Positions 4,944-64,000 are shown, counted from the stretch's first letter. The stretch is 64,000 nucleotides of DNA from Candidatus Zhuqueibacterota bacterium (GCA_049322915.1 JBMOPW010000020.1:96001-160000); one strand, 5' to 3'. Notes: generated by a model not told the origin, from the sequence alone. Made by a program: numbers and translations.

Positions 4944-5076
4944 AAATATGAATGACCAGTTATAATTTTGGCGACTATATTATTATTGGACATACGCGTA
5001 GTGGACGGTCGCGACCGTCCACTACAGATACAAAAAAGTATCGAATTCATTGCCCATGCTTTCATCTGGTCATTCA
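4944..5076. repeat. Dispersed MITE/REP-like element, copy 1
   Basis: Perfect 28-bp palindrome GTAGTGGACGGTCGCGACCGTCCACTAC (4998-5025) inside 11-bp inverted repeats TGAATGACCAG (4949-4959) / CTGGTCATTCA (5066-5076). Second copy at 59526-59635. Confidence 0.85.
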
Positions 5077-9413: not shown

Positions 9414-9497
9414 GTCCTGTTCCTATTGCTCCGCTCGAATTCATCTGGCCGTTGAATAGGAACGTAAAGGGCAGAGCGCATTCCCTGGGTCAGCCGA

Positions 9498-11315: not shown

Positions 11316-11333
11316 GGTTTTTTCCTCATAAAA

Positions 11334-12350
11334 TTAGTGGTCGGTTGAAGCGGGTAACAGCGTATGAATTGTGATTTCAGGCGGGCAGAAAAATCGGACT
11401 GGAACGCCTGAAGAGCCTGCCCCGGTGGAAGTGTAGCCGTACATGGATTCGTATCGCCAACTCCGCGCGGCAAACCGGCGGGGGCAGGAAACATTCAGAA
11501 AAATGGGAATCCGACCGGGCAGGCACACCTGGCCGCCGTGCGTGTGCCCGGCGAGATAGACATTGAATCCCAGCCGGTGCGCCGATTTGTACAGCTCCGG
11601 CGAATGGGCCAGAAGAATTTTCACCTCTTCGTGCGCAATCGCTTTGACTGCGCGATCCAGGTCGTGCAGCCCATAGAAATGGGGATCGTCCACACCGGCC
11701 AGGCCCAGTGAACTGCCATCGCGCTGAATGCGAGCGGATTCGTTGAGCAGCATCCGGATATCCAGTTGCTCGAGGTAGGGGACCATTTCGATAAAATCGT
11801 GATTGCCAAGTATGGCGTACACCCCGTGGCGGCAGTCCAGGTGCGGACGAATTTTCTCGATGTCGGCCATGGAGCGCTCGTATTTGCCCTGAGTGAGCAG
11901 CCGGAAATCGCCGGTGATGACGCACAGATCGAACGATGCGCCGGCCAATCGCCTGATAATCAGGTCCGGCAGAATCGGATCGATATCGAGGTGCATGTCG
12001 CTGAGATGAAGTATCCTGAAATTGTGGAAGCGCACCGGGAGATTGGGGATTTCAATCCGGTTTTCGGTGAGCTCGATCTGCTGGAAATTTTTATAGCCCA
12101 GCCGGTATAGCCCGGTCGCTTTGAAGGCGAATTCCGAAATGGTAGAAATCCAATCGATATTTTCGAAATGAAAATGGCCGACGCCCTTGCCGAAGTAGCG
12201 GGTGATGTGGTCTATCTGACGGGTCAGGCGTTTCTCCAAAAACCCGGGCTCGAACCTGTCCAGCAGCGCCTTTATGTCCGGCCTCAAGAGCGAGGGTGCA
12301 TGGGGCGAATCTGAATCGCCTGAATGGAACGTTTTCGAATGATGCGTCAT
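11334..12350 (-). CDS. Calcineurin-like metallophosphoesterase
   Basis: SDMH, TGDF, GNHD, LAHSP and GHTHGGQ motifs. Confidence 0.92.
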   Translation of the reverse strand: MTHHSKTFHSGDSDSPHAPSLLRPDIKALLDRFEPGFLEKRLTRQIDHITRYFGKGVGHFHFENIDWISTISEFAFKATGLYRLGYKNFQQIELTENRIEIPNLPVRFHNFRILHLSDMHLDIDPILPDLIIRRLAGASFDLCVITGDFRLLTQGKYERSMADIEKIRPHLDCRHGVYAILGNHDFIEMVPYLEQLDIRMLLNESARIQRDGSSLGLAGVDDPHFYGLHDLDRAVKAIAHEEVKILLAHSPELYKSAHRLGFNVYLAGHTHGGQVCLPGRIPIFLNVSCPRRFAARSWRYESMYGYTSTGAGSSGVPVRFFCPPEITIHTLLPASTDH

Positions 12351-46923: not shown

Positions 46924-49449
46924 ATGCTAAAAAAGAAATTATCAATCCTCATGATAATATTTCTCATGGGTCTCACTTCGATTGCTACGGCGACAGATTT
47001 TCCCAAAATAGGAATTGTCTGTTGCGGTGATCTGTGGGAAAGTTTTATGCCAAGCGGCATAAATAAATATTATGGCGAATCACAAACTGATGTGTTGAAA
47101 AACTTCGTCATCGCCAGACTCGGTAATTACGAACGAACCTGGAGCACACCAACATTTCATTATCCGGCCGGCGATATTTTCACGTTGACCTGGAATACCA
47201 ACCTGATGATGACTGAATATCATCCGACTGAGCAAATTGGCGCCTATCGAAAAACAGTCGCCAGCGATACAGCCAACTACCGGAATTATTGTAATGCGTT
47301 CTGGATGGCGTCAATGGGCAACACCACGGCAACACCGACTTCAACTGGTGACGCAGTGCGTGGCGCCGCTCAATGGACAGATGATAACACCCGTCATCAG
47401 CAATTATATGAATTCTTCTTCCCAACCAACATCGGTGTTGACATTAAAGGTCGTCTCCGCGGCTTCAGCTTCAATGAAGCGAACATGAACGACTTCATCG
47501 CCATGGAGTTCGAACTGACCAATACCGGAGTGCAGGACAACAACTGCGACGGAACCATCGATCGCAGCAATCATAAAATCGAAGCCCTGTCCATGTTGTT
47601 CTCCGAAGAGACGTTTGGATGTATGGCTCTGAGCGCCCGCGGTGTCCGTTGGACTGGCTGGTGGCCGGCCTCACGACTCTCCGGCTACGACGGAAGCCCG
47701 GATCCGGATGGCAATCCCTGGGATGTGCCTTTCTGCTGGGCAACCGGTATTGCTGAAAGCGATCTGGACGCCAACCGATGGGCCGCTGATGAGAAACGAA
47801 AAGTCAGCTACCGAACCTCCAGAGGTATTTTCTCTGACATCTGGAACGGCCAGCATTTCATCGCTGTGAAAAAAGGCACACTGGACGGCGGCGCCGCTGC
47901 TGAAGACAAACCGACGATTTACGGCAGCCATCCGATAGGTGAAGGCGTGCAACAAGGTTGGTATGTCACCCGCAACAGAACCAAACTTGGCGAGCCCTAC
48001 GGCAACTTCGTCATGGCCACCGGCGTGTTCTATCAAGAAGGTGGTAAATCTGAAGACCCGACATTGTTGCTGGGCAAATCAGTGAAACCAGATCCCAATT
48101 ACTTTGATACCACCCAGCCGTACACTGTGGGTAACCCTGTTTCGTTTGCCAGCCTGCCGATCAAAGGCGGACAGCCGAAGGGCGATATGAAGTATACAAA
48201 TTTCTGGTTCGAAAACTGGGAAAAGAATTATCCCGGCACTCCGGATCCGAAAATACCCAATGCAGATCTGTGGACTGCTGGCGGTACTCCAAAAACCATA
48301 TACAATTTCGACTCAGGCGCTTCGGTTGGTGTAGGCCCGTTCTCATTGGAAGTTGGCGAGTCAATGACGATCGTCGCCATCGAGTACGGTGGTTATCGAT
48401 TGAAGGGCGTGCGAAATGCTGTTGCCGCTGCCCGTTTTGCCTATGAGAATAACTGGAATGTTCCTCTGCCTCCGCCAATGCCGGAGATGAACGTTGCTGC
48501 GACAGAATATCAGGAACCCAGCGGTCTGACCGTAAAACCAAGAATCGTATGGGATGCCCGTGCTGAATCTGCTGCTGATTTTGCCGGCTACAAAATTTAT
48601 CGCGTCACCGCCTATCCAAAATATAAGTCAGCTCAATTTGGAACCCGTTTCCTGGATAAATACCATCATCAGGGCGCTGATGATATTGGCCTGTCCGATG
48701 ATGAACTGGAAGCCAAGTACTCCGAGCCGATCAACCCCAATAACAGTGTTCCGGCCAATTACAATCTCGATTGGGATCCGGGCATTCATGGACCGTGGAA
48801 AATTATAAATTATATTCCCAAGTCCGAATTGAATAACTATCTGAACACTGGCAGCGATGCTGCGACTTACAAATATGCTTGGATCGACGCATCCAGCGAA
48901 GCTCGGTTTGGCTATACCTTCTGGTATTATGTTGCCGCGTTCGATAATGAAAGTGGCACCATTGCCAATACGTCCTTCACCAGTTTGGAAAGCGGCAAAG
49001 AAAACTTCAACGGACGCTGGGGAGAATGGGCTGGTTCTTATCCCTGGTGTACAGCATCCACAGGATTCCCCACAGATGCTGCCGGCGTGAAAAACATGGG
49101 CGCCCCGTTTGTGCTTAATCTGCCGCGCGCTGATGTCACCGAACTGCTCAGCGGCGAAAAGAGCATTGCTGTAAAACCGAATCCCTATAAAGTCCAGGCA
49201 CCGCATGATGTCGGATTAGAGCATAAAGTGGTATTCTATAACTTACCGATGAACACCAAAATCACCATTTTTGATCTGTCCGGTCAAATCATGGATGTTA
49301 TCGAATACTACGGTTTGGATCCCAAGAATGGTACTATTTTCTGGGATATGTTCACCAAAGACGGCCCTGAAGTACAGAGTGGCTTGTATATTTGGGTTGC
49401 CGAATATCCGGGTGGCAAGCAAACCGGTCATTTAGCTGTTATGCGCTAA
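46924..49449 (+). CDS. Secreted protein with T9SS-type C-terminal sorting domain
   Basis: Signal peptide; FnIII-like FAGYKIYR..WYYVAAFD; C-terminal VKPNPY..VVFYNLP..ITIFDLSG..WD...VQSGLYIW. Confidence 0.75.
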   Translation: MLKKKLSILMIIFLMGLTSIATATDFPKIGIVCCGDLWESFMPSGINKYYGESQTDVLKNFVIARLGNYERTWSTPTFHYPAGDIFTLTWNTNLMMTEYHPTEQIGAYRKTVASDTANYRNYCNAFWMASMGNTTATPTSTGDAVRGAAQWTDDNTRHQQLYEFFFPTNIGVDIKGRLRGFSFNEANMNDFIAMEFELTNTGVQDNNCDGTIDRSNHKIEALSMLFSEETFGCMALSARGVRWTGWWPASRLSGYDGSPDPDGNPWDVPFCWATGIAESDLDANRWAADEKRKVSYRTSRGIFSDIWNGQHFIAVKKGTLDGGAAAEDKPTIYGSHPIGEGVQQGWYVTRNRTKLGEPYGNFVMATGVFYQEGGKSEDPTLLLGKSVKPDPNYFDTTQPYTVGNPVSFASLPIKGGQPKGDMKYTNFWFENWEKNYPGTPDPKIPNADLWTAGGTPKTIYNFDSGASVGVGPFSLEVGESMTIVAIEYGGYRLKGVRNAVAAARFAYENNWNVPLPPPMPEMNVAATEYQEPSGLTVKPRIVWDARAESAADFAGYKIYRVTAYPKYKSAQFGTRFLDKYHHQGADDIGLSDDELEAKYSEPINPNNSVPANYNLDWDPGIHGPWKIINYIPKSELNNYLNTGSDAATYKYAWIDASSEARFGYTFWYYVAAFDNESGTIANTSFTSLESGKENFNGRWGEWAGSYPWCTASTGFPTDAAGVKNMGAPFVLNLPRADVTELLSGEKSIAVKPNPYKVQAPHDVGLEHKVVFYNLPMNTKITIFDLSGQIMDVIEYYGLDPKNGTIFWDMFTKDGPEVQSGLYIWVAEYPGGKQTGHLAVMR

Positions 49450-50691: not shown

Positions 50692-51699
50692 TTGAAGTTA
50701 AACCGATATTCTTCACTGTGGCTATTTACGATCATCGCTGTGTTAGCGGGTAGCTTTTCCGGATGCAGCAAAAGCGTACCAACGTACGAGATGGAAATTG
50801 TGAAATCATTTCGCCTGAACATCCCGAATGTCGATCTTGACAAATATTTTAAAAGAGTGACAGATGTAGACCTGTCCCAAAATGGAGGATTTGTCATCGT
50901 CGATATCGCCGGGCCGGGAGTGCTGCTGTTTGATGAACAGGGCAATTACATCAATAACATTGCCGGATATGGCAGTGGCAACTTCGAAACCCTCTGCTCC
51001 GCCACGTTTGTGGATACGCTAATCGCTGTCTATACGCTCAACCAGATCGAATTTTTTACAGCAAATGGAACACCGGTGAAACGCCATTTTACGAGGGGAC
51101 GAGGCGATGCCGCAATCGCACGGGATGGAAGTTTCGTTTTCAATCGCATGATCGATGCAAGAACTCAGGGAGCATGCCTGGAAACATACGACACGAACGG
51201 AAAATTGATCACGAAATTCAGGTCTCCGCGAGCGAAGGAAGAAGGGATGGAGATGCTGGATTTCGGTTTTTCGAGGTTGACTCCGGATTCGCGGATTGTG
51301 TATGTCCCGGTTGTCGTCGACTCCGCATTCATTTATGATTTTAACGGTAACGTGCTGTTGTCCAAAAAGCTGAAATCCGCCCTGAAACCATATAAAAATA
51401 AAGACGATAAACCCGGCGCATTGGTAGAAGATGTCGTTGTCAATGACGATGGGATTTTCATCGTCCGATTGGATAAGGAGCTGTCGAACGAAACGATCGT
51501 ATATTTTAATTTGATAGAACAATATGATTTCAATCTCAACCGTGTCGCTGCCTATAAATTTGCCACGCCAATCACCATGACAACTGCGACGGAAATATAC
51601 TCGCCCTGGTACAACAATTTCGCCGTGCGCAATGGAGTTTTTTATCTGATGGTCTCGCAGCCATTCCAACAGCTCATTGCATTCCAGGCGAAGAAGTGA
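50692..51699 (+). CDS. Lipoprotein, probable 6-bladed beta-propeller
   Basis: Lipobox FSGC; repeated FDEQG.YI, YDTNGKLI and YDFNGNVL blade-like motifs. Confidence 0.65.
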   Translation: MKLNRYSSLWLFTIIAVLAGSFSGCSKSVPTYEMEIVKSFRLNIPNVDLDKYFKRVTDVDLSQNGGFVIVDIAGPGVLLFDEQGNYINNIAGYGSGNFETLCSATFVDTLIAVYTLNQIEFFTANGTPVKRHFTRGRGDAAIARDGSFVFNRMIDARTQGACLETYDTNGKLITKFRSPRAKEEGMEMLDFGFSRLTPDSRIVYVPVVVDSAFIYDFNGNVLLSKKLKSALKPYKNKDDKPGALVEDVVVNDDGIFIVRLDKELSNETIVYFNLIEQYDFNLNRVAAYKFATPITMTTATEIYSPWYNNFAVRNGVFYLMVSQPFQQLIAFQAKK

Positions 51700-51723
51700 A
51701 TCATTTGAAATTGGACATCAAAC

Positions 51724-53283
51724 GTGAATAGTGTGAAACAGAACCATCGGCTCAGGAAAATCATTTTTTATTTCATTGCAGTGGTCGCTCCGTTCGTTGT
51801 CTGGATTGTCGCAGAAATGGCGGCCAATGCCATCACCCAACGATTCGAGCCGCTCAAAGTTGACAAGAAAAAAGGCACGCTGTACATCAATCAGGAGTAT
51901 TTCACCGATTACTTCCTGTACGATCTGGATCGCTATGTTAATACTTCCATCTCCAATCGGGCGATTCACAAGGACAAGAAATATCGTTTCAGAATTTTCT
52001 GCCTCGGCGGCTCGACAACTGCGGGCTATCCTTACAACACTCTGCCGGAGTATAATTGCCCGGCGTCATTCCCGAATTACCTGCGGGCTATTTTGCAGTA
52101 TACTAAAAACATGCCCGAAATCGAGATGCTCAATTTGGGCAGCAATGCATTCAACAGCCTTTCGGTGCTGAAGGTGTTTGAGGACGTCAAAAAATACGAT
52201 CCTGATTTGATCATCGTTTACAGCGGGCATAACGAGTATTTCGGTCCCAACGAATTTGCTCTGTCCAAATCGGCCAACGAACTCTATACGAAGAAATTTT
52301 TCAATCATACTTTCCTGCGGCTGCGACAGACCTACCTGTATCAGGGATTGAAATGGGTTTTAAAAAAAGTGACAAAGCGGGGCGAAGTTGACTATCAGGA
52401 TTATGCGCATTGGAGCCTGGCCAACACGGTGCCGTTCAATGACGCGTTCCACGAACAGGTGAAAACAAATTTCAGGCGCAACCTGACTGAACTGGTGCGA
52501 CTCGCCCGCAAAGAAGGCATTCAGGTGGTGATCTGCACGCCCGTGTCCAATCTGACATTCCCGCCCTTTGTCAGCCAATTCCGCGAAGAGCCGGTGTATG
52601 GGGTCAAAGCCCGATGGGATTCCCTGCGCAACCAGGCAAGCGACCTGTTCGACGCCCGCGACAATGCCGGCGCGCTGGAAAAATGGAGGGAAATGTACCT
52701 GATCGATTCCACTTACGCGGACGTACATTATTATACCGGCATGAATTACGCGCGACTGAATGAATACCGCATCGCCAATGAGGCATTGACCCGCGCCGTG
52801 GATTTGGATAATCTGCCGTTTCGTGCAAATTTAGATATACAAAATATCACCCGCGACGTGGCGAAAAATGAACAAGTCATCCTGGCGGATGTGGATCAGT
52901 TTTTCCGGCAACTCTCCGGCAAATATTATCCGGAGCCGTCGATGCTGCTGGATCATGTGCATCCCACAGAGCCGGGTTATTATTATGTGGCGCTTTTTCT
53001 GGCTCGCACTCTCGTGACTAATGGCGTCTTCCCCGGCGTGAAGGAAATCGAATTTCCCACGCTGGAAAAGACGCGCGAGGCTTTGGAAATTTATGATTTC
53101 GTGGCGTATAAAGTCGAGTTCGATTTCACCAATCAAAGCTATTTGAAACAGCTCAGCGAACTGAATCCGGCCATCAAAATCGTGATCAATCAGATCCGGC
53201 AAAATGCCATCACCCAGGCCAAAGCAGTCGGCAAGAAGTTCTTTGACGAAATGAATGGAAAAGAAAAAGAGGAAACAAAGTAA
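51724..53283 (+). CDS. Membrane-anchored SGNH/GDSL hydrolase-like protein with TPR insert
   Basis: N-terminal TM, GGSTTAG (block I), GHNE (block III), DHVHP (block V) and a TPR-like YADVHYYTG segment. Confidence 0.78.
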   Translation: MNSVKQNHRLRKIIFYFIAVVAPFVVWIVAEMAANAITQRFEPLKVDKKKGTLYINQEYFTDYFLYDLDRYVNTSISNRAIHKDKKYRFRIFCLGGSTTAGYPYNTLPEYNCPASFPNYLRAILQYTKNMPEIEMLNLGSNAFNSLSVLKVFEDVKKYDPDLIIVYSGHNEYFGPNEFALSKSANELYTKKFFNHTFLRLRQTYLYQGLKWVLKKVTKRGEVDYQDYAHWSLANTVPFNDAFHEQVKTNFRRNLTELVRLARKEGIQVVICTPVSNLTFPPFVSQFREEPVYGVKARWDSLRNQASDLFDARDNAGALEKWREMYLIDSTYADVHYYTGMNYARLNEYRIANEALTRAVDLDNLPFRANLDIQNITRDVAKNEQVILADVDQFFRQLSGKYYPEPSMLLDHVHPTEPGYYYVALFLARTLVTNGVFPGVKEIEFPTLEKTREALEIYDFVAYKVEFDFTNQSYLKQLSELNPAIKIVINQIRQNAITQAKAVGKKFFDEMNGKEKEETK

Positions 53284-53285
53284 GC

Positions 53286-56200
53286 ATGCATCCATATATT
53301 ATTTACCTGTTATTTTTTTTTTCAGGGGCGACCGGATTAATTTACCAGCTTGTCTGGGCGCGAAAATTGGCGCTGCTGTTTGGCAATACCACCTACGCGA
53401 CCAGCGCCATTTTGACTGCATTTATGGGCGGTCTCGCCCTGGGCAGCTTTTTGATTGGGCGCTACGCGGATAGAATCAAACGGCCGCTGCGACTTTACGG
53501 GAAATTGGAACTGGGCATTGGCGCAGCGGCGCTGGCCATCCTTTTCCTTCTCATTCCCATTTCCGATGCAGTGTATGTCTGGCTGTTTCATCACATCGGC
53601 AGTAGCCCGCTTGTCATCAATATCTTCCGGTTCATTCTGGCCGTTTTCATCCTCATTATTCCCACAACCCTGATGGGCGGCACACTGCCTGTCATCAGCA
53701 AATATTTCATTCAGAAATCCGAGGAATTCGGCCGGGGCGTGGGACGACTGTACAGCTTCAACACATTCGGGGCGGTGATTGGCGCATTCATCACCGGCTA
53801 TTTTCTGATTGGCGCGTTCGGCGTGCGGACAACGCTGTGGCTGGCCATTGTTTTGAACCTGATCATCGGAGCGGTGGCTCTGTGGCTGGACGGCCGGAAG
53901 CCCCAGCATGTCCCTGAAAAACCGAAGAAATCCGATTCAGCAAAGTCACAACCGGCGCAGCCGACCGGGGACAAACTGAAAATCAGCGCCTACTCCGCGC
54001 CACAAGCCCGACTGATGCTCTGGTTATTTGGCCTAGCCGGCTTTGCTTCACTGGCCTACGAAGTTGTCTGGACGCGGGCATTGATTTTTTTCATCAGTTC
54101 AACGACCTATTCGTTCACTATTATTCTCACCACGTTTCTCGTCGGCATTGCCCTGGGCAGCGCCATCATGGCCAGGCCAACGGATCATTTGAAGCGATTA
54201 TTTTTCTGGTTCGGCGCGTTCGAACTGATCATCGCGATTGCGGCCATTGCCTCCGTGCCTCTGCTCGGGCATCTCAACGCCATTCAAAGCTATCTGGTGC
54301 AGCAGGTACAATCTCAAAACTGGACGCAAATTTCGCTGCTGCTGTTTCTATCCACCTTTCTGATTTTGATCATCCCGACGCTTTTCATGGGCGCTGTATT
54401 TCCCATCGTCAATCGAATTTATGTGGATAATCTGAAAACAGTGGGACAGGGCGTCGGCAAAGTCTATACGGCCAACACCATTGGCGCGATCCTGGGCTCG
54501 TTCATCTCCGGATTCATCCTGCTCCCGGTTTTCGGGATGAACGGCAGTATTCTCGCGCTCGGGCTGATTAATCTGGCCATTGGACTGGTGTCGTTATTCT
54601 CCGAGAGCGCGGGCCGACAGCGAAAACGGGCGACGTTCCTGTATGCCGGAATTCCCGTCCTCGCGTTTGCAGCGATATTGATTATCGGTTTCAGCACGAA
54701 ACCGCTTTTCATCAGCGGCGCCGGTTTCAAAGACACGCGGCTCCTGCATTACAAAGACACGGCTGCGGCGACGGTGAGCGTGCTTGAGAAAAAAGACCAG
54801 GTCAATATTTGGGGCAAAAATGTCCGCTATCTCAATGTCAACGGGCATAACACCGCCCATACCACGTACTCGGACATGATCATTCATAAGCTGCTGGCGC
54901 ATTTGCCGGTGCTGCTCACCCCTGATCCGAGGGAGGTGCTCGTCGTCGGCTTCGGTTTCGGGAACACGTGCAAATCGTTTCTGGAATATGACTTCATCAA
55001 AAAAGTCGACTGCGTCGAATTGGTCGAACACGAGAAAAAAACAGCCGCGTTTTTCGAAGATGAAAATAAGGGCGTTCTGCAGGATGACCGATTCCGCTTC
55101 ATTGTCTCGGACGGACGAAATTATATCCTGGCAGCGGATGCGACCTATGATATCATTTCAATCAATTCCGTGGACCCGAAGTTCAGTCCCACGCTGTATA
55201 CCGAAGAATTTTACCGACTTGTCAGAAAACGGCTGAATGCCAATGGACAGCTCGTCGCGTGGCTTCCGATTTACGGGATGAATCTCGATGAAGTGCGCGC
55301 GCTGGTGAAAAGCTTCATCGACGTATTTCCCGAAGCAGAACTGTGGTACAATAATCCGGAGCACCTGTTGCTGGTTGGCAAAAAAGGCAATTATCCCATC
55401 GACGTGGAATCGCTGAAGCATCGAATGATGAAGCCGCGAATTTGGAAAAGCCTGGAAGAAATTCATCTGAACGACCCGTATACTTTTTTAGCGAATTTCT
55501 TCTGCGGCCGGCAGATGCTGAGTAAATTCGCCGGCGATGTGCAGAGCCACTCCGACAATCACCCGGTTGTCGAATTCAGCCGGATTACATCCAAAGAGAT
55601 GATCCCTGAAGTGTATCGGGAACTGCTGAACTGCCGGGAGACCGTCCTGTTGTACTCCATGAATTTCGATGCGCTGGGTGAAACGGAGACGGTGCGCAAG
55701 CAAATCCTCAATTACGAACGGGAGATGAAAAATCTCATGGCAGCGTTTTTCAACTATCGGCTGTTCGCTGCCCGGCCTGAGGCGCAGGAGACGCTCGTTG
55801 AAATCATCGCGACCATGCAGAAAATCCTCAATGAAGAGCCGGCCAATGACTTTGCGCTGATGCAATACGTCGACCTCCTCAGCCACGGCGACATGGTGGC
55901 GAATCAGCGGTATTTCGATGCGGCCATTGCCATCGCCCCGAATTTCGCCAAGGCCTATGTGCTTTCCGGCCTCGCCCATGCAGCGAAGCAGGAATGGGAC
56001 CTGGCCCTGGCCAGCTACCAGCGCGCGCTCGCAATAAATCCGGCGTATTTTACCGCGAAGAACAATGCCGGTCTGATTTTGATTCAGCAACAGAAATGGG
56101 CTGAAGCGGAACAAATCTATCGCACGCTGCTCCAGGAAAACCCGGACGATAGCTTCGCTCATTCCACCATCGCGCAGGTGTATTACATGCTGGAAAACTA

Positions 56201-56399
56201 CGACGCCGCCATCCTGCACATGAAAATAGCGATTGAAACCCAGCCGGAACAGGCCAATCTCTATTTTAACCTGGGCCGGATGTATCACAAACAGGGACAC
56301 ATTCCGGAAGCGATTCAGGCCATGGAAGAAGGACTGAAGATTTCGCCCTACGATCAGCGCGCCATTCAGTTTCTGGAAGAATTGAAAAGAATGAAATAA
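53286..56399 (+). CDS. Fused MFS-like / spermidine-synthase-like membrane protein with C-terminal TPRs
   Basis: SGATGLIYQLVW and LAYEVVWTR repeats, about 13 TMs, VLVVGFGFG, DGRNYI and TPR tail. Confidence 0.85.
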   Translation: MHPYIIYLLFFFSGATGLIYQLVWARKLALLFGNTTYATSAILTAFMGGLALGSFLIGRYADRIKRPLRLYGKLELGIGAAALAILFLLIPISDAVYVWLFHHIGSSPLVINIFRFILAVFILIIPTTLMGGTLPVISKYFIQKSEEFGRGVGRLYSFNTFGAVIGAFITGYFLIGAFGVRTTLWLAIVLNLIIGAVALWLDGRKPQHVPEKPKKSDSAKSQPAQPTGDKLKISAYSAPQARLMLWLFGLAGFASLAYEVVWTRALIFFISSTTYSFTIILTTFLVGIALGSAIMARPTDHLKRLFFWFGAFELIIAIAAIASVPLLGHLNAIQSYLVQQVQSQNWTQISLLLFLSTFLILIIPTLFMGAVFPIVNRIYVDNLKTVGQGVGKVYTANTIGAILGSFISGFILLPVFGMNGSILALGLINLAIGLVSLFSESAGRQRKRATFLYAGIPVLAFAAILIIGFSTKPLFISGAGFKDTRLLHYKDTAAATVSVLEKKDQVNIWGKNVRYLNVNGHNTAHTTYSDMIIHKLLAHLPVLLTPDPREVLVVGFGFGNTCKSFLEYDFIKKVDCVELVEHEKKTAAFFEDENKGVLQDDRFRFIVSDGRNYILAADATYDIISINSVDPKFSPTLYTEEFYRLVRKRLNANGQLVAWLPIYGMNLDEVRALVKSFIDVFPEAELWYNNPEHLLLVGKKGNYPIDVESLKHRMMKPRIWKSLEEIHLNDPYTFLANFFCGRQMLSKFAGDVQSHSDNHPVVEFSRITSKEMIPEVYRELLNCRETVLLYSMNFDALGETETVRKQILNYEREMKNLMAAFFNYRLFAARPEAQETLVEIIATMQKILNEEPANDFALMQYVDLLSHGDMVANQRYFDAAIAIAPNFAKAYVLSGLAHAAKQEWDLALASYQRALAINPAYFTAKNNAGLILIQQQKWAEAEQIYRTLLQENPDDSFAHSTIAQVYYMLENYDAAILHMKIAIETQPEQANLYFNLGRMYHKQGHIPEAIQAMEEGLKISPYDQRAIQFLEELKRMK

Positions 56400-56441: not shown

Positions 56442-56473
56442 CCGGGATGTCACCGTCCCGGGTTTGCTTTTTT
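56442..56473 (+). terminator. Probable intrinsic terminator
   Basis: CCGGGATG-TCAC-CGTCCCGG stem followed by GTTTGCTTTTTT. Confidence 0.55.
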
Positions 56474-56600: not shown

Positions 56601-57128
56601 ATGAAAAAATATTCCACATATTCCGATGAGAAGCTCACCAGCGCTGTGAAATCAGCAGATGCTGCTGCATTCAAGGAACTCTATTACCGCTATTACAAGC
56701 CGCTCCATTCCTTTATTTGTCTTCGCACGAATTCGACCGAACTGGCGCCGGATTTCATTCAGGAAGTTTTCACACGCCTGTGGCAAAATCGTGACAAGCT
56801 CATTCCTGAAAACTCTGTGAAAGCCTACCTCTACAAAATCGCTAACAATCTGATCATTGATTTTTTCCGTAAAAAAAATACAGAACGAACTTATCTGGCT
56901 GAAAAATCTTCTGCAACAATCCTGCAAACCGATAATTTGCTCGAATCCGTATCTGACATAAATTTCGCCATTCAAAATCTCCCTGAAAATTGCCGCATCG
57001 TTTTTATGCTGAGCCGCTACCAGAACCTCACATATCTTGAAATTGCCAAAGCGTTGAATATATCCATCAAAACCGTGGAAGCCCGAATGAGCCAGGCGCT
57101 GAAGATTTTACGAACTGAATTGCTATAA
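56601..57128 (+). CDS. ECF sigma-70 factor (FecI-like)
   Basis: AFKELYYRY, DFIQEVFTRLW, YLYKIANN and LPENCR.VF.LSR...LTYLEIA.ALNIS.KTV. Confidence 0.93.
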   Translation: MKKYSTYSDEKLTSAVKSADAAAFKELYYRYYKPLHSFICLRTNSTELAPDFIQEVFTRLWQNRDKLIPENSVKAYLYKIANNLIIDFFRKKNTERTYLAEKSSATILQTDNLLESVSDINFAIQNLPENCRIVFMLSRYQNLTYLEIAKALNISIKTVEARMSQALKILRTELL

Positions 57129-57189
57129 GCAATCGTTGAATCTTCGAGTCCGGACGGGAAAATTTCTTTCACTTTTCAAAAAATATTTA

Positions 57190-57216
57190 TAGGGTTTTCT
57201 TTGGTTCAATCGTATT
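57190..57216 (+). promoter_or_regulatory. Possible ECF-dependent promoter in front of fecR
   Basis: TAGGG-N16-CGTATT between the sigma and anti-sigma genes; ECF-like CGT at -10. Assignment is inference. Confidence 0.35.
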
Positions 57217-57252
57217 ATAAGTGAACAAGATATCAAAGGAAAATGAATTATC

Positions 57253-58278
57253 ATGCAGAACGAAAAATTTCACAACCTCTGTATTAAATCCATTGCCGGC
57301 GAAATTTCATCCGCAGAACAAAAGGAATTGGAACACTGGTTGAACGCTTCAGCGGAAAATCGAAGCGGCTACCAGGAAATTCAACAGATATGGCAAAAGG
57401 CTGAAATCATCTCTATTGCCGGGAATTTACAAATCGATGAACAATGGGAGCGACTCAGTCGTGACCTCGGCTTAATGCACGCGGAGAAGCATCGAAAACT
57501 ATCGCCTGCCAGCTCCGGGATTCGGGTAAGAATGAAACGATTTTTTAAGCCCGGGCTCAGGCCAGCTTACGCTATAGTAGGGGTGGCGATAATCGTGTTG
57601 ATCGCGTTGGTTTCAATCCAAAAACAGGAGGTAATTCCTGTGCTGCAGGAAATTGTAACCAATAATGGAGAGACCACTGAATGCATGTTTTCCGATGGTT
57701 CGACCGTGCGCCTCAACAGCGGCAGTTCAATTCAGTTTTCGAGTGTCTTTTCCGACACGGCTCGGCAGGTATTTTTGAAGGGCGAAGGTTTTTTTGCCAT
57801 TGCAAAAGAAAACCGTCCATTTGTTGTGAATACTGAAAGTGCAAAAACTGTGGTGCTTGGCACGGAATTCAATGTGTGGGCGCGGGGGAGCGAAACCAGG
57901 GTTATTGTAAAAAGCGGAATAGTGCGCTTTTTGTCCTTAAAAAATAAAGAGGATGTCGTTTTACTTGAGAATCAAATGAGTTGCCTGGATGAAAAAGCTG
58001 CGCCGACATCGCCCAAAACAGTGGATGCGGATTTTCTGTTAGGCTGGCTGAAAGGCAGATTGGTATTCGAGCGAACTCCCATACTAGAGATTATCGCTGA
58101 ACTTGAACGTCGATACAATATTTCCATCGTGATGGACAATGTGGATGTGAAAAATGAAACGATCACAGCAAGTTTCGATTCGTCGTCTTTGGAGACTATT
58201 TTTGCTTCACTTTGCCTGACGCTGGGTATTCAATATAAAATTGAACAGGCCCGGGTTACGCTTTTCAAAACATTATAG
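57253..58278 (+). CDS. FecR-family anti-sigma factor
   Basis: N-terminal LEHWLNASAEN, one TM, DGSTVRLNSGS, V.LKGEGFF, VLGTEFNV and WLKGRLVF..TPI.EIIAELERRY. Confidence 0.93.
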   Translation: MQNEKFHNLCIKSIAGEISSAEQKELEHWLNASAENRSGYQEIQQIWQKAEIISIAGNLQIDEQWERLSRDLGLMHAEKHRKLSPASSGIRVRMKRFFKPGLRPAYAIVGVAIIVLIALVSIQKQEVIPVLQEIVTNNGETTECMFSDGSTVRLNSGSSIQFSSVFSDTARQVFLKGEGFFAIAKENRPFVVNTESAKTVVLGTEFNVWARGSETRVIVKSGIVRFLSLKNKEDVVLLENQMSCLDEKAAPTSPKTVDADFLLGWLKGRLVFERTPILEIIAELERRYNISIVMDNVDVKNETITASFDSSSLETIFASLCLTLGIQYKIEQARVTLFKTL

Positions 58279-58327
58279 AATAAAATTATAACGATTGGCA
58301 TCTTGCAGAGTTTTTGGAATCTCACTT

Positions 58328-59470
58328 ATGCAAAAAATGATATCACAATTGATAATCGTTTTATTTCTAATACAATTTGGGTCAAAAGTCGTTCTTGGGC
58401 AAGCGGCAGTGGACTCAGCGCGGGTTACGCTGTATTGTTCAAATCTGCCGTTGAGAACGGTGCTGGAAGAAATCTCCAGGCAATCGCGAACACGTTTTGT
58501 TTTCAACGATAGGTTGGTCGAATCCAAAGAGGTCACCTGCAATATTGAAAACGTAACTGTTGAAGTCGCGATTCACCAGGTACTTAAAAATCTGGACATT
58601 GGCTATCGGATGTTTCCGTGCAGGACTGTTGCCCTGTTTACAAAAATACAGATATCCGGAGTGCTTGTGAAAAAAAAGAAAGAGAATGAAATTTGTGCGC
58701 CCATTCAACCGCCGACGCTTCGGGTGAAAATTAAACCGCATTATCCGCTCAGCGCCCAGAAGGAGGGACTTGAGGGGCGAGTAAAGCTCGATCTTCTCGT
58801 TGACAAAAACGGCAAAGTTGCCAAAGCCAAAGTGACGCGGTCAGCCGGGGCCGCGCTTCTTGATTCTACAGCTGTAGAGTATTCGAAACAATTGAAATTT
58901 TATCCGGCAACTCAAAAAGGCCAACCGACCGATGTATGGTTAACCTGGAACGTAAATTATAAATCCCAACAGACCAGTTTGCTGGAATCGAAATACATTG
59001 ACAGAATTCAAACGCTCCACCGGCTTTCCTGCGAGTACAACGATTCAACACGCAGCAGGATTCTCGATGCCATCGTTTCAACACACAAAGTGTTAATAGA
59101 CTATTTTCTCGAGCGCCCCAATCTCAGTTATAATGAAGTTGTTAAAGAAGTCATTCTGGATGAAATTTACCAAAAATGGAAAGCGTACTGGAATGACTGG
59201 CAACTGCATTTTGTTGTATTCCAGGATTTTCTTTTACGCTATCCGGATTCCAAATTTTCCACTCTCGTAATTGAGGAACTTGTGCATCATTTTGAGCAGG
59301 ATTTGTCTATAATAAAAAAGTCTGCGGGAAATGATGAGGCTCAAAAAAGCAAAATCGAACACCTCGAAAACAGATTGATAGATTTCATGAAAGCAAAATA
59401 TCGACAAACTGATAAGGAATTTATTTCAGATCAGGGAGAGAATGTCAAACTCCCTGATCTCGTTAATTAA
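58328..59470 (+). CDS. Secreted STN domain - TonB C-terminal domain - helical domain protein
   Basis: Signal peptide; STN-like LPLRTVLEEISRQSRTRFVFND..VTCNIENVTVEVAI.QVL; TonB_C PHYP..AQKEGLEGRV.LDLLVDKNGKV...LDSTAV...KFYPATQKGQP. Confidence 0.8.
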   Translation: MQKMISQLIIVLFLIQFGSKVVLGQAAVDSARVTLYCSNLPLRTVLEEISRQSRTRFVFNDRLVESKEVTCNIENVTVEVAIHQVLKNLDIGYRMFPCRTVALFTKIQISGVLVKKKKENEICAPIQPPTLRVKIKPHYPLSAQKEGLEGRVKLDLLVDKNGKVAKAKVTRSAGAALLDSTAVEYSKQLKFYPATQKGQPTDVWLTWNVNYKSQQTSLLESKYIDRIQTLHRLSCEYNDSTRSRILDAIVSTHKVLIDYFLERPNLSYNEVVKEVILDEIYQKWKAYWNDWQLHFVVFQDFLLRYPDSKFSTLVIEELVHHFEQDLSIIKKSAGNDEAQKSKIEHLENRLIDFMKAKYRQTDKEFISDQGENVKLPDLVN

Positions 59471-59525
59471 ATTTTTTCGAATTCATGTGAGTGAAGATGT
59501 GTTATGTCAGCCAGTGGTTTAGTAG

Positions 59526-59635
59526 AAATATAAATGACAAGCTAAAATTTCAGCACCTATGTGGACGGTCGCGACCGTCCACTACAGATATAACAAAATA
59601 TCGAATATAGTGCACATGTTTTCAACTCGTCATTC
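59526..59635. repeat. Dispersed MITE/REP-like element, copy 2 (internally deleted)
   Basis: 59561-59635 matches 5001-5075 at 65/75 positions ungapped (hand count). The left part matches 4944-4978, and about 22 bp present in copy 1 are missing. Confidence 0.85.
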
Positions 59636-59687
59636 TTATTAACAATTCCTATAATTCTATCCTGCGTATAAAATTATCGGAGGTGTA

Positions 59688-62531
59688 ATGAAAAAGAATA
59701 GAATTTCATGTTGCGTTTTGCTAACGATTTTATTTGCGCAGATTTCACTTGGAGCCGATTTTACAGTGCGCGGAAGGGTGACAGATTCGCAGACCGATGC
59801 CCCGCTTCCCAAAGCAAATGTCATGATAGAAGGAACTTCCCTGGGAACGATCTCAGATGATGCCGGTCGTTTTACTCTGAAAATTCCCAACCCAGGGACT
59901 TATGTCCTTCAGGTCAAATACATCGGATATAAGAAATACAGGCAGTCGCTAAACTTTTCGTCCGATCGAATTGTGGAGGTGAATATTGCCCTGGTACCCA
60001 CTGTCATTTCCAGCCAGGGAGTGACGGTTACGGCGAAAGCTGATGTGAACAGGGCTATGGAGCGGAAAACGCCGGTGGCGTTCACTAAACTGGACGTGGT
60101 TGAAATACAGAGAAACTACACCACAGGCGATCTGCCGGAGCTCATTCAGGATGTGCCTGGCGTTTGGACTTCCAGCGCCGGTCTTGGCGAATCGGAAATT
60201 ATAGTCCGTGGTTTTACCTCCGACAAAGTGCGTTTTATGATTAATGATATTCCCATGAATGAGCCGGAGGACAACCAGGTTTACTGGTCGAACTGGGCAT
60301 CGCTTTCCAGCACAGCACAATCCATCGAAGTGCACCGCGGTCCCGGTTATTCGCTGTACGGGCCGGCGGCGTTTGGCGGCTCGGTTCACATCGAAACCAT
60401 GGGTGTCGCTTTGGTACCGGGTTCGATATTTCGAGTTTCCAGCGGTGTTTTTCAGCGACTTGGTATTAGCAACGGGATGAACGCCGGCCGTGTGTTCAAT
60501 CCCGAAGTTCCGGGAGAGATGACCGAAGCGACAAATGCGATAAATTATACCTATTCACTCAGAATGAATTCCGGTCCGCTTATGAAAGGGAAACTGAATG
60601 TATGCGCATTTCTGGAATATAAAACCGGCGATTCCTATCTTTATGGGACAACGTACGACGGCTACTCTTTTGGTCTCGAAGCAGAGAGTCTGTTGCGCCA
60701 GCACCGACTTCGCTTCAGCTTCTTCATTTCACCTCAATCGCATAACCAGGCCTTTGCTCTGCAGGACATCGATTTGCTGGATTCCATTGGCCGTGAATAC
60801 AACCGGAAAGATCACAGTTACCAGGAAAATTATTATTCGAAACCATTCTGGTCGTTGAAACACGAATGGACTATCTCAGATAAGCAAATTTTGGTGAGCA
60901 GTGTTTATTATACTATTGGAAAAGGCGCCGATCAAACGCTGGTGAATGATGTGTTTGATGTGAACACTGGTGCTGTCGAATTTCAGCCCGTTAATACTGG
61001 CACAACGCTGCAAGCGTTCGGAAAACATGCTGCATTTTTGTATGAAAAATTTGGCCTGTGGTGCACCGATTTTATGCCGTTGAATGAAGATTGGTCTTTG
61101 TCCGATCCGTACAATCAAAACAGCTACAAGCAAACATTAGTCGGGAGATCCGGCGTCAATCTTTTCACTGAAAATCATGATCATAGCTGGCAGCGGAGAA
61201 ATCGCCGAGATCACAATCAATTGGGGATTTACAGTTACTATAAAAGAGACATTGGAGCAAAAATTCAGGTGATTGCCGGAGGCGAGGGACGCGTCTGGCG
61301 TGGCCATCGTGAAGCAGAGATCTGGTATTTGAAGTTCGGGCCAGGCATCACGTTCAGGGGCCTGGATGTTCACAATATCGTCGGCGAAAATGTGCAGACC
61401 GACCAATTGCAATCGCTATATAATTATAATACAGAAGTAGATAATTTATCGGTATTCTCTCGCGTTAATTTAAATCCGTTCGAGGATTTTACGTTGCAGG
61501 CGGGCGGGCAATTTGCCTTCACAAACATGAAAGTTATTGAAAATCCAATTCGTTTTTTGGATATCGGCAGTTTTCTTTTTTTTAAGGACTCCTATCGCAC
61601 TTCAGCGGATCAGATCAATGAAGATGGCTCACTAAAATTCACTGATGGCGACTATAAAAGATCATTCAACTTTTTTACGCCATGGCTGGGGTGCAACTAC
61701 AATATAACAGAGACAATGAATGCATTTTCCAACTACGCGACATCAAAAAAAGAACCTGCTATTCTGGACTGGTATGATTTCGCAGAAGGTCCCATGTTGG
61801 CAGAGGCAAACGGGAGGAAATTGCAGCCGGAAACAGCAACCAGCCTCGAAGTCGGAGTGGGGTATAAAACATTACTTTTGGAATCGAAATTGAATTGTTA
61901 TTACACGCGCTACAGCGACAAGATTGAATCGGTCATCGATATTAACGAGCAGCGGCGAACCATGAACGCTGGCCGCGCTGTTTTCCAGGGATTTGAGTGG
62001 GAATTCAAGGGGAAGATGATGGATTTTGATTTTTCCGGCACGGCAACAATTTCCCGAAACCGCTGGATTTCCATGAATGTTGATTCAATCTTCGGCGCAG
62101 CGGCAACAGATGTGAAGGGTAAGGTTGTGCCTTTTGCACCGGAGCGAATGTTTTCAGCCTGCTTCGGATATCGCTTCGAACCATTTCCTAGTCATAATTA
62201 TCATTTTGCATTCCGTTTGAATTATTGGGACGAGTACTACGGCACTTATACGAACGAACATATCGATGCCAAAGGATATGTAAAAAAAGCCAAATTGCCT
62301 TATTTTCTCGACATCAGCGGTCAGTTAAGTTTTACGAAGATAATGAAAAAAGTCGATCTCACGTTTCGGCTCGATGTGAATAATCTACTCAACCGTCGAG
62401 ACAATTTCATGCGCGCGCAGTACACAATCGATTACACCCGAAATGATATTCTTGCCGGAAAATATAACTGGTATGTGTTGCAAGCGCCGCTTTTCAATGT
62501 GTTTCTGACAGGCGAGGTTGCCATTCATTAA
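59688..62531 (+). CDS. TonB-dependent receptor (CarboxypepD_reg-like domain, plug, barrel; no STN domain)
   Basis: VRGRVTDSQTDAPLPKANV directly after the signal peptide; plug IVRGF..INDIP..IEVHRGPG.SLYG..AFGGSV; LQPE..SLEVG and VNNLLN. Confidence 0.9.
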   Translation: MKKNRISCCVLLTILFAQISLGADFTVRGRVTDSQTDAPLPKANVMIEGTSLGTISDDAGRFTLKIPNPGTYVLQVKYIGYKKYRQSLNFSSDRIVEVNIALVPTVISSQGVTVTAKADVNRAMERKTPVAFTKLDVVEIQRNYTTGDLPELIQDVPGVWTSSAGLGESEIIVRGFTSDKVRFMINDIPMNEPEDNQVYWSNWASLSSTAQSIEVHRGPGYSLYGPAAFGGSVHIETMGVALVPGSIFRVSSGVFQRLGISNGMNAGRVFNPEVPGEMTEATNAINYTYSLRMNSGPLMKGKLNVCAFLEYKTGDSYLYGTTYDGYSFGLEAESLLRQHRLRFSFFISPQSHNQAFALQDIDLLDSIGREYNRKDHSYQENYYSKPFWSLKHEWTISDKQILVSSVYYTIGKGADQTLVNDVFDVNTGAVEFQPVNTGTTLQAFGKHAAFLYEKFGLWCTDFMPLNEDWSLSDPYNQNSYKQTLVGRSGVNLFTENHDHSWQRRNRRDHNQLGIYSYYKRDIGAKIQVIAGGEGRVWRGHREAEIWYLKFGPGITFRGLDVHNIVGENVQTDQLQSLYNYNTEVDNLSVFSRVNLNPFEDFTLQAGGQFAFTNMKVIENPIRFLDIGSFLFFKDSYRTSADQINEDGSLKFTDGDYKRSFNFFTPWLGCNYNITETMNAFSNYATSKKEPAILDWYDFAEGPMLAEANGRKLQPETATSLEVGVGYKTLLLESKLNCYYTRYSDKIESVIDINEQRRTMNAGRAVFQGFEWEFKGKMMDFDFSGTATISRNRWISMNVDSIFGAAATDVKGKVVPFAPERMFSACFGYRFEPFPSHNYHFAFRLNYWDEYYGTYTNEHIDAKGYVKKAKLPYFLDISGQLSFTKIMKKVDLTFRLDVNNLLNRRDNFMRAQYTIDYTRNDILAGKYNWYVLQAPLFNVFLTGEVAIH

Positions 62532-62570: not shown

Positions 62571-63515
62571 ATGAAATTTAAGAAATTATTATTCGCTGCT
62601 CTGTTTTTCTTGTTGTTCTTTTCTTCCGCGTTGTTGTCGCAGGACGAAATCTCTCACCTGAAAGTTACGGGTAAACTGGGAATTCTTTTGGCTGCGGATA
62701 GGGGTGCGGAAGATGGTATTGAAATTGATTGGGTTTACGACATGAAACGAATTGTAATGAACGATACCTTTCATGTCGGAACAGCGGTTGTGTCCAGAGT
62801 AGAACCTAAAATGTGTTATTTGAAACCATTCTTTGTGAGTCCGTTCAGGGCACGGGAGAATGATGATTTATTTAAAAATGTGGCTTTGACCGAAAGTCTC
62901 ATGCGCACCAAATCGAATGATTTCTGGAACGAAATTCAGAGCTGCAATGCGGGTGTTGGCAACCTTGATTTTATTGATGGTAGGAATTTCAGGAACTGTG
63001 TTATCACCATGAAGGACGGGGTAAGCGTCAAAGTGAAAGATCTCATTGTAAAAGCGAATGAAGGAATATTAATACCGCAAAAATACACAACCAAGCGGGA
63101 GCTTGTGCCGATTGAGGGTATTCAAAGTATCAAGACTTCCACAGGTAACTATGCATTATTTGGCGCGGTGATTGGGGCTTCGATTGGCGGAGGAGCAGTG
63201 CTGCTGTTGCATCAGAGCAATGTTGAATTGGACACTACTTATTACTTCGTAAGTTCGCTGAATCAGTACGGCAACATCATCGGCTGGTCCAAGATGATGA
63301 AGGTAGTAAAAAAAGACCATCGGCTACCAATGTTCACGCGGATTGCCATGGTAAGCGGCGGTTATCTTTTAGGCTCAATCATCGGATACGCGTTCAAAGG
63401 TAACTATAAGGAAATCTATTCATCGGGAAAGTGGGATGGAAAAATGTCCTTGAATTGGAATATTACCCAGCCCTGGCCGGATGCGATTGGTATCAACCTC
63501 AATCTTTGTTTTTGA
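62571..63515 (+). CDS. Secreted/membrane hypothetical protein with glycine-zipper segments
   Basis: Signal peptide; GAVIGASIGGG and GGYLLGSIIG helices; RBS GAGG. Confidence 0.7.
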   Translation: MKFKKLLFAALFFLLFFSSALLSQDEISHLKVTGKLGILLAADRGAEDGIEIDWVYDMKRIVMNDTFHVGTAVVSRVEPKMCYLKPFFVSPFRARENDDLFKNVALTESLMRTKSNDFWNEIQSCNAGVGNLDFIDGRNFRNCVITMKDGVSVKVKDLIVKANEGILIPQKYTTKRELVPIEGIQSIKTSTGNYALFGAVIGASIGGGAVLLLHQSNVELDTTYYFVSSLNQYGNIIGWSKMMKVVKKDHRLPMFTRIAMVSGGYLLGSIIGYAFKGNYKEIYSSGKWDGKMSLNWNITQPWPDAIGINLNLCF

Positions 63516-63572: not shown

Positions 63573-64000
63573 ATGAGAAGGATAGTACTGATTATTTTAT
63601 CACTGTTCATTTCAGTTCTTTTCATGCAATGCACAAGCTATACCATCAATGTAGCAACAGTGCCGGCAAAGAAAGTAGAGATATATGTGAATGATGAATA
63701 CAAAGCGACGACAGATGAAAATGGCACGGCCACCATGAAAATTGATGGCGCATCGTTTGAGGAAATGCAGCTTGTTGAAGCGAAGGCTGATAATTACTAC
63801 GGCTTTGTAAGTGTCAGTTATGGCAAAGGCGTTTCACCCGAGACGCAAAATGTATATTCGGTTGTCAATCCCAACCCAAAAGAAGGTAAGCAGAAAGCAA
63901 AGATGCATTACAACATTGTTTTCATGATCCCTGAAGGTGAAACAACTCAGCCACGGTTTGTTGAATCAAAAATTGCAGCGATAAAAGAAGACACATCGTT
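63573..64000 (+). CDS. Putative lipoprotein, 3'-truncated by the window edge (absent from the ORF track)
   Basis: RBS AGGAG, then MRRIVLIILSLFISVLFMQC-TSYTINVATVPAKKVEIYVNDEY (PEGA-like); frame open to the end of the window. Confidence 0.7.
   Translation, partial: MRRIVLIILSLFISVLFMQCTSYTINVATVPAKKVEIYVNDEYKATTDENGTATMKIDGASFEEMQLVEAKADNYYGFVSVSYGKGVSPETQNVYSVVNPNPKEGKQKAKMHYNIVFMIPEGETTQPRFVESKIAAIKEDTS

Follow-up and report, generated by a model that had tools for sequence, protein, structure and literature searches.

Proposed adaptor-type cell-surface signalling

In the textbook definition of cell-surface signalling (CSS), the STN domain is fused to the receptor. A locus in which this domain is encoded by a separate gene lies within a 64,000-nt stretch of DNA, referred to here as the window, from Candidatus Zhuqueibacterota bacterium (GCA_049322915.1 JBMOPW010000020.1:96001-160000). 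It is composed of four collinear genes on the + strand (56601-62531), all with intact reading frames, which encode an extracytoplasmic function (ECF) sigma factor, a FecR-type anti-sigma factor, a protein designated X and a TonB-dependent receptor (TBDR). Protein X is proposed, with middling confidence, to be a secreted, barrel-less CSS adaptor that relays the state of a TBDR to FecR and is thereby a functional counterpart of VreA from Pseudomonas.

VreA is the one described exception to the receptor-fused STN, and its partner and role have been open since 2009. According to the available text of the original report (Llamas et al. 2009, PMC2729926), VreA belongs to the PUMA3 system of P. aeruginosa (vreA-vreI-vreR) and begins with a signal peptide, after which come an STN-like N-domain, a short linker and a C-domain of the TolA/TonB superfamily. 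The protein contains neither a plug nor a barrel, is mostly soluble and therefore presumably periplasmic, and shares its operon with genes for an ECF sigma factor and a FecR-type anti-sigma factor. The authors proposed that VreA touches the anti-sigma factor through its N-domain and one or more unknown outer-membrane receptors through its C-domain (PMC2729926). The first-pass annotation of the window held that no system of this form had been described; this claim fails because the two-domain, barrel-less design and the adaptor idea were already in print for VreA. Besides the VreA papers, no STN-TonB_C adaptor was found in a literature search that left supplements and subscription journals outside its range, and the available portions of the ECF reclassification paper (PMC7826278) and of the Braun 2022 review (PMC9249621) do not mention one.

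Organization of the locus

The genes of the locus and the domains on which the argument turns are as follows.

56601..57128, + strand: ECF sigma factor, Bacteroidetes-type and FecI-like, 175 aa (Sigma70_r2 5.7e-14, r4_2 3.3e-15, TIGR02985 1.9e-40)
57253..58278, + strand: FecR-type transmembrane anti-sigma factor, 341 aa (DUF4880, FecR 4.3e-17, FecR_C 1e-16)
58328..59470, + strand: protein X, 380 aa, with predicted signal peptide, STN, TonB_C and helical tail (Pfam, homologues, AF2 model)
58421..58642, + strand: STN domain of X, residues 32-105 (fold matches, AF2 pLDDT 84-93, Pfam 17.6 bits)
58715..58960, + strand: TonB C-terminal domain of X, residues 130-211, with invariant YP (PF03544 7.2e-19, TonB C-terminal domain structures)
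58967..59431, + strand: conserved all-helical tail of X, residues 214-368 (AF2 helices, conserved motif)
59688..62531, + strand: TBDR, 947 aa, with signal peptide, CarbopepD_reg, TonB-box-like GVTVTA, Plug and barrel, and no STN (Pfam, orthologues)
60018..60035, + strand: TonB-box-like strand GVTVTA, TBDR residues 111-116, between CarbopepD_reg and Plug (conservation in orthologues)

The sigma factor scores above the TIGR02985 family cut-off, and a terminator-like hairpin (56442-56461) closes the gene upstream of it. The pairing of a FecI-like ECF sigma factor with a FecR protein that contains an N-terminal anti-sigma domain, a transmembrane helix, FecR and FecR_C is shared with FecIRA-type signalling. 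Within the genome (6.25 Mb, 96% complete), this FecR is the only FecR_C match above the cut-off, and none of the approximately 45 Plug-domain receptors carries a Pfam STN. A second, weak STN/FecR_C match is located on a 457-aa protein of the same genome (G000:C7:284000-291400); it was rejected as a second FecR system, being secretin-like and encoded among prepilin-type neighbours in a pilus cluster.

Domain architecture of protein X

The start of X is placed at the ATG at 58328, where the N-termini of its homologues align, rather than at the TTG at 58295. The sole hydrophobic segment lies within residues 1-29, with GQA/A after it, and in the homologues the hydrophobic stretch closes with AQ or GQA signal-peptidase-like sites. 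An AF2 model, built on an alignment of 20 sequences and with a mean pLDDT of 82.5, places an N-terminal hydrophobic helix at residues 2-22, a first domain at residues 32-105, a disordered linker at 109-121, a second domain at 130-211 and helices at 214-368. The N-terminus of X looks like a cleavable signal peptide, and export is predicted on that basis.

The first domain is an STN by fold and by ancestry. A profile of the 20 X homologues matched the STN/N0 domain of PilQ (2.7e-4), the PupA signalling domain (0.017) and TonB C-terminal domains (1.8e-11) in the PDB. The closest structural match to residues 30-110 is the PupB signalling domain from the PupR complex (6ovk_B; Z 10.9, root-mean-square deviation (rmsd) 2.4, 81 aa), followed by FecA (1zzv, Z 10.3), PupA (Z 10.0) and FpvA (5odw, Z 10.0), and Foldseek agrees. 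Residues 9-106 also align at 32% identity (E 2e-18) with the N-terminal part of a TBDR from a relative that has the classical form with its own STN. The Pfam STN profile (PF07660) reaches 17.6 bits on X (E 0.0034), below its gathering threshold of 28.4 bits, and a precomputed PF07660 match is present in two of five close homologues. Because this score is sub-threshold and yet the fold matches lie at Z 10-10.9 and two of the five homologues carry PF07660, the domain of X is regarded as a divergent member of the STN family.

The assignment of TonB_C is direct, with PF03544 at 68.5 bits (E 7.2e-19) against a gathering threshold of 24.6 bits. Its YP motif (Y139, P140) is invariant across the 20 homologues, and residues 125-214 of the model match the C-terminal domains of TonB structures 9ddz_A (Z 12.1, rmsd 1.8) and 6i97_E (Z 11.8). 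Proline makes up 3.1% of X; there is no Pro-rich spacer, and the 20-residue linker between the two domains is Lys-rich. The tail features a motif, W..W...LHF.VF.D, that is conserved among the homologues. A structure search with the tail returned only generic helical matches (Z <=7.7), and an Atlas search only sub-threshold TPR/BamD-like leads (score 0.76, TM 0.43-0.48).

Pfam, the AF2 model and the fold matches thus bear out the plan of X given by the first-pass annotation, namely signal peptide, STN, TonB_C with a YP motif and a helical tail of about 165 aa, with no long Pro-rich linker; the gene order and gene coordinates are also as it gave them. It had proposed to look for STN and TonB_C on X and for the absence of STN on the TBDR. 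TonB_C and the STN-less receptor were found by Pfam, and the STN of X, which stayed below the Pfam threshold, is confirmed by its fold.

Distribution of X and linkage to sigma and FecR

A word-indexed search identified four full-length relatives of X with 41-76% identity, all of which keep the three domains. When residues 1-225 were compared by phmmer with 1.84 billion representative sequences, 19,408 matches were obtained at E <=1e-3, mostly to TonB_C. Among the best 150 of these, 55 feature STN and TonB_C in a single stretch: 14 long proteins of 361-387 aa that include the tail, and 41 short ones of 174-258 aa. Every such protein that is not obviously truncated begins with a signal-peptide-like N-terminus. 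Their source annotations, where a name is given, read just 'TonB family protein', and the sources include one Ignavibacteriaceae metagenome-assembled genome and one 'candidate division KSB1 bacterium'. Across 167 genomes of the phylum, the long form is present in 13 and the short form in six.

The gene neighbourhood was compared in 20 loci, comprising 18 of these phylum loci, the window itself and a locus from a metagenome (L014). A homologue of X follows FecR in all 20, directly in 19 and with one open reading frame between them in L014, and in each of the 18 phylum loci the two genes overlap or are separated by no more than 17 nt. A sigma factor gene is visible in 19 of the loci (in L049 the contig ends first), and in L062 it comes after X. 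The cassette is present at every one of the 20 loci; chance does not account for the arrangement, and the one-off rearrangement that the first-pass annotation had named as an alternative does not describe it. A scan of genome contigs returned only two loci with TonB_C alone, both from Chitinophagaceae, and a scan of metagenomes returned two loci, L014 and L013, the latter with TonB_C and tail only.

Two cassettes of family f21 (L045:5491-8372 and L058:6821-9619) contain genes for an OEP (TolC-like) protein and for MacB/FtsX ABC-type efflux just upstream of the sigma factor gene.

Origin of protein X

In relatives, the position after sigma and FecR is taken by a classical transducer composed of STN, CarbopepD_reg, Plug and barrel, and the Pfam STN is recognised in four of the five transducers examined (8e-11, 1e-10, 5e-7 and 4e-6). 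The remainder of X has a different set of relatives. Residues ~123-370, which span TonB_C and the tail, are homologous (E down to 1e-86) to proteins of ~260-330 aa that are encoded in about 55 of the 167 phylum genomes; none is encoded in the genome of the window. With its STN related to that of one such transducer (the 32% identity given above) and its C-terminal part to this family, X looks like a transducer STN joined to an anchorless TonB_C+tail module.

In the seven loci read, the TonB_C+tail proteins (L004-L012 and L026-L044; e.g. L004:1456-2271) start with a lipobox and have an outer-membrane gene as neighbour. Six of these neighbours were scanned, and FadL/TodX was found above the cut-off in three, weakly in two and with no match in one. 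Given the adjoining outer-membrane genes and the three clear FadL/TodX matches, the module tends to be found with barrels of the outer membrane and not with ExbBD.

The adjacent receptor

The TBDR is predicted by Pfam to contain CarbopepD_reg_2 (residues 27-114) and Plug (126-231) followed by the barrel, with no match to STN even at E 0.1. Ten further phylum genomes encode orthologues with 40-56% identity, and all 10 share this N-terminal plan, in agreement with the first-pass annotation, which had described the receptor as opening with CarbopepD_reg and lacking STN. Between CarbopepD_reg and Plug, a V(T/I)VTA strand is kept in most of the orthologues. In the receptor of the window this strand is GVTVTA, which is presumably the TonB box, going by the Bacteroidota consensus.

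The genes after the TBDR follow the order p314, GWxTD296, p250 and GWxTD473. The first two begin within the window.

62571..63515, + strand: p314, a secreted protein with two Gly-rich hydrophobic segments, member of the island (27% identity, E 4e-42, to a 314-aa protein of L014)
63573..64000, continuing to 64463 in window numbering, + strand: GWxTD-domain protein GWxTD296 (PF20094 5.3e-17 over the full 296-aa frame)

No Pfam or NCBIfam family was matched by p314, and a literature search for 'GWxTD' found nothing.

A TBDR occurs near X in only two of the 20 loci, the window and L014. Of the neighbourhood of ECF sigma factor, FecR, STN/TonB_C protein and TBDR that the first-pass annotation proposed to look for in other genomes, the cassette recurs and the receptor mostly does not. 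L014 encodes the sigma factor, FecR, an X homologue (43% identity), two GWxTD genes, p314 and an orthologous TBDR (53% identity), in an order that differs from that of the window. The combination of TBDR, p314 and GWxTD genes is found in these two loci alone among the 20; L056, like L014, has GWxTD genes after X. In a quick maximum-likelihood tree of the X homologues, the proteins of the window and L014 fall with five others into a clade of seven (SH-aLRT 99), of which these two have a known locus context.

The sister clade contains cassettes of another type, in which X is followed by a conserved lipoprotein of 207 aa, Y. Y is encoded in L045-L054 and L057-L061 (e.g. L058:3775-4398, - strand) and matches no Pfam family. 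Its AF2 model (pLDDT 84.7) consists of two units in tandem, each a beta-sheet plus helix, for which the PDB offers no clear counterpart (best match Z 6.0), and a genome-wide search found no homologue of Y in the genome of the window. The link between X and a TBDR is confined to a single clade.

A complex prediction, run without controls, between the TonB_C domain of X (residues 118-225, as an alignment) and residues 92-150 of the TBDR scored 0.02 against a mark of 0.32 and weighs neither way. Comparison of intergenic 9-mers between the window and L014 for a shared promoter motif yielded no convincing candidate; the words in common were AT-rich ones and TTCGAATTC. The latter is a palindromic word located just 3' of the stop codon of X, at 59476-59484 in the window and at ~4640-4650 in L014; as a single 9-mer, it may be chance.

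Variation of the island

The genes upstream of the sigma factor (window 50692-56399) are syntenic in relatives, and the content downstream of them varies. In G017, from another family of the same order, this upstream block is directly followed by a pair of TBDR orthologues and a gene resembling p250, and in G011 and G007, from the same family as the window's genome, the block is directly followed by GWxTD473. The genome G001, from the same genus, holds a degraded version (L087, G001:C47:14000-31000, ~9470-11730), in which an internal deletion fuses residue 106 of the sigma factor to residue 54 of FecR. Only residues 1-106 of the sigma factor and 54-341 of FecR remain; X, the TBDR, p314, GWxTD296 and p250 are missing, and ~1 kb of non-coding DNA with short dispersed repeats is found instead. 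X and the receptor genes have been lost in this case alone, and the sigma factor and FecR are broken in it as well. The block from sigma to p250 also exhibits a reduced GC content at third codon positions (GC3) of 0.41-0.50, compared with 0.61-0.65 in the flanks. Because the contents after the syntenic upstream genes differ between relatives, the block behaves, as far as sequence comparison goes, like an island subject to insertion or deletion. An alternative suggested by the synteny of G017, in which a three-gene cassette was inserted before a resident TBDR, is weakened by G001, G011 and G007; variation affects the sigma-to-p250 block in its entirety.

X and the TBDR are separated by a 217-bp spacer that consists largely of one copy of a dispersed repeat resembling a miniature inverted-repeat transposable element (MITE), with a degenerate left arm.

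59530..59640, no strand assigned: MITE-like dispersed repeat in the X-TBDR spacer, with approximate borders (core palindrome GGACGGTCGCGACCGTCC at 59563-59580)

The complete element is ~130 bp and is composed of the palindrome GGACGGTCGCGACCGTCC and arms like atgaatgaccagt / actggtcattcat. Its 18-nt core is present in 25 exact copies genome-wide with common flanking arms, and a second core lies in the window at 5003-5020. Copies are located on contigs C1, C2, C5, C7, C10, C11, C14, C16, C18, C21, C29, C34, C37 and C40, and two contigs begin inside the element.

Proposed mechanism and alternative explanations

In the mechanism proposed here, X would be exported and its STN would contact the C-terminal domain of FecR, as in PupB-PupR or FecA-FecR; that the STN of X partners FecR is highly probable. 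The TonB_C domain, with the tail, would dock by strand addition on an outer-membrane partner, of which the likeliest in this island would be the GVTVTA strand of the adjacent STN-less TBDR, accessible upon ligand loading. Binding to this TonB box in particular is put forward tentatively, with slightly more doubt than belief. Docking would rebuild the 'STN-linker-TonB box-plug' geometry without a covalent link. The altered contact between STN and FecR would then inactivate FecR, allowing the ECF sigma factor to switch on the TBDR, p314 and GWxTD genes, which form its putative regulon. A wider version, which seems rather unlikely, would make X a portable signalling head that is clipped onto the TonB box of an STN-less receptor, with the cassette pairing with varied clients (the TBDR here, Y elsewhere) and travelling as an island. 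The first-pass annotation had interpreted X as a periplasmic adaptor that reads an exposed TonB box through TonB_C and passes the signal to FecR through STN, and this interpretation is partly supported.

Several points weigh against a relay from the TBDR to FecR through X. In P. aeruginosa, deletion of vreA left sigma factor activity in low phosphate and virulence in zebrafish unchanged, and the function of VreA, 'if any', is called unknown in the available text of both studies concerned (PMC4971064, PMC7035377). To the sub-threshold Pfam score of the STN is added that the signal-peptide cleavage of X was judged by eye, and the N-terminus could be an uncleaved anchor. An X bound to the TonB box would also compete with the real TonB, since a TonB_C domain with no anchor would presumably be unable to energise transport. 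In the other phylum cassettes, no TBDR lies within ~8 kb of X (18 of 18) and Y directly follows X in 15 of the 18, so reading a neighbouring TBDR cannot be the general mode of the X family. All seven of the other TBDR-orthologue loci examined have no sigma factor, FecR or X nearby, and the receptor apparently works without the cassette.

The same counts support a rather unlikely alternative, in which X partners FecR through its STN while TonB_C and the tail sense another part of the envelope (Y in most cassettes; here perhaps p314, GWxTD or a FadL-type barrel) and the TBDR is a mere target of the sigma factor. The GWxTD genes after X in L014 and L056 fit this explanation, as does the association of the TonB_C+tail module with FadL/TodX-like barrels, which have no TonB box. 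It is countered by the history of the clade that includes the window, which lost Y and, in the two loci whose context is known, acquired the TBDR set, and by the TonB_C of X itself, which is canonical, keeps an invariant YP and has its best structural matches among TonB C-terminal domains solved with TonB boxes. A brake or decoy, in which the STN holds FecR off or X blocks the TonB box to throttle uptake, is improbable; the complex of a Pup signalling domain with the anti-sigma factor's C-terminal domain is indeed described as a resting state in the available text of PMC11429574, and an X that cannot energise transport would suit such a role, but the strict operon coupling to sigma and FecR suits an activating relay equally well. 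Far less probable still is a genuine TonB energy transducer, an option that the first-pass annotation had also raised, with the N-terminal helix anchored in the inner membrane and coupled to ExbBD. The TonB_C domain is strong and the hydrophobic helix could stay uncleaved, but X has no Pro-rich spacer, its STN domain sits where TonB carries that spacer, its homologues feature signal-peptidase-like sites and its TonB_C+tail relatives are lipoproteins. Moreover, none of the 15 ExbD matches of the genome is located on the contig of the window (C20), whereas four of the seven TonB_C matches in the genome adjoin ExbD genes. The degraded version in G001, the MITE-like repeat between X and the TBDR and the low GC3 of the island could be taken as signs of a chance or decaying, functionless locus, which is scarcely credible in view of the intact frames, the four full-length relatives of X and the retention of the cassette in every locus compared. 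The reading of X as an adaptor between the TBDR and FecR is retained on this balance, with the middling confidence given at the outset.

Neighbouring genes in the window

The gene directly upstream of the island (53286-56399, +) encodes a 1037-aa fusion of a membrane domain resembling the major facilitator superfamily, a spermine/spermidine-synthase domain and C-terminal tetratricopeptide repeats. The fusion is syntenic in relatives at 50-73% identity and is preceded by a GDSL-type protein of 519 aa. Further upstream, a 985-aa protein (43908-46865, +) contains CarbopepD_reg with no Plug match at E <=0.001, and the 841-aa protein that follows it (46924-49449, +) matches no Pfam family. A consensus scan for promoters and terminators gave counts of 19 (15.1 in shuffles) and 10 (7.4 in shuffles), which are not above the shuffled sequences.

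Comparison with known systems

The locus shares with the classical transducers (FecA, FpvA, PupB, FoxA and the STN-bearing SusC-like proteins) an ECF sigma factor, a FecR with FecR_C, the STN fold and a TonB-box-like strand on the TBDR, and the fused form occupies the same operon position in relatives from the phylum. It differs in that the STN is here located on a separate secreted protein together with TonB_C, and the receptor opens with CarbopepD_reg at residue 27. Signal transfer in FecIRA-type systems requires TonB-ExbBD and a ligand-bound receptor. With TonB, HasB and FusB, X has in common the fold of the C-terminal domain and the YP motif. Such transducers have an N-terminal membrane anchor that couples to ExbB/ExbD, as a rule encoded close by, and a long Pro-rich spacer in the periplasm, whereas X has no Pro-rich spacer or ExbBD neighbours and instead features a secretion-type N-terminus, an STN and a helical tail. 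The TonB_C+tail lipoproteins differ from X in having a lipobox in place of the signal peptide and STN, and they are not encoded next to sigma and FecR.

The adjacent TBDR is a concrete candidate client, whose binding could settle whether proteins of this kind act as adaptors and render signalling modular. If X does clip onto the TonB box, a plain transporter would become a transducer coupled to FecR and an ECF sigma factor, which would provide a mechanistic answer to the role of VreA-type proteins.

Judged by the published description of VreA, the likeness to X extends to the signal peptide, the STN, the linker and the TonB-like C-domain, with no plug or barrel, and to the ECF sigma factor and FecR-type anti-sigma factor with which X is encoded in all 20 loci. 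The C-domain of VreA is recognised at the superfamily level (9.3% identity to TolA, as far as the available text states), whereas X has a canonical Pfam TonB_C with a YP motif and adds a helical tail of 165 aa. The gene order is sigma-FecR-X here and vreA-vreI-vreR in Pseudomonas, X comes from another phylum (the KSB1 and Ignavibacteria group), and a candidate client TBDR adjoins X, while none is reported beside vreA in the available text of the three VreA papers (PMC2729926, PMC4971064, PMC7035377). What is new at this locus, as far as the literature searched shows, is a canonical TonB_C and an added helical tail on a VreA-type design; a large STN-TonB_C family outside the Proteobacteria, in uncultured FCB-type bacteria, that is strictly coupled to FecR; a visible origin that would join the STN of fused transducers to a TonB_C+tail lipoprotein; and a clade whose cassette is accompanied by one particular receptor without STN.

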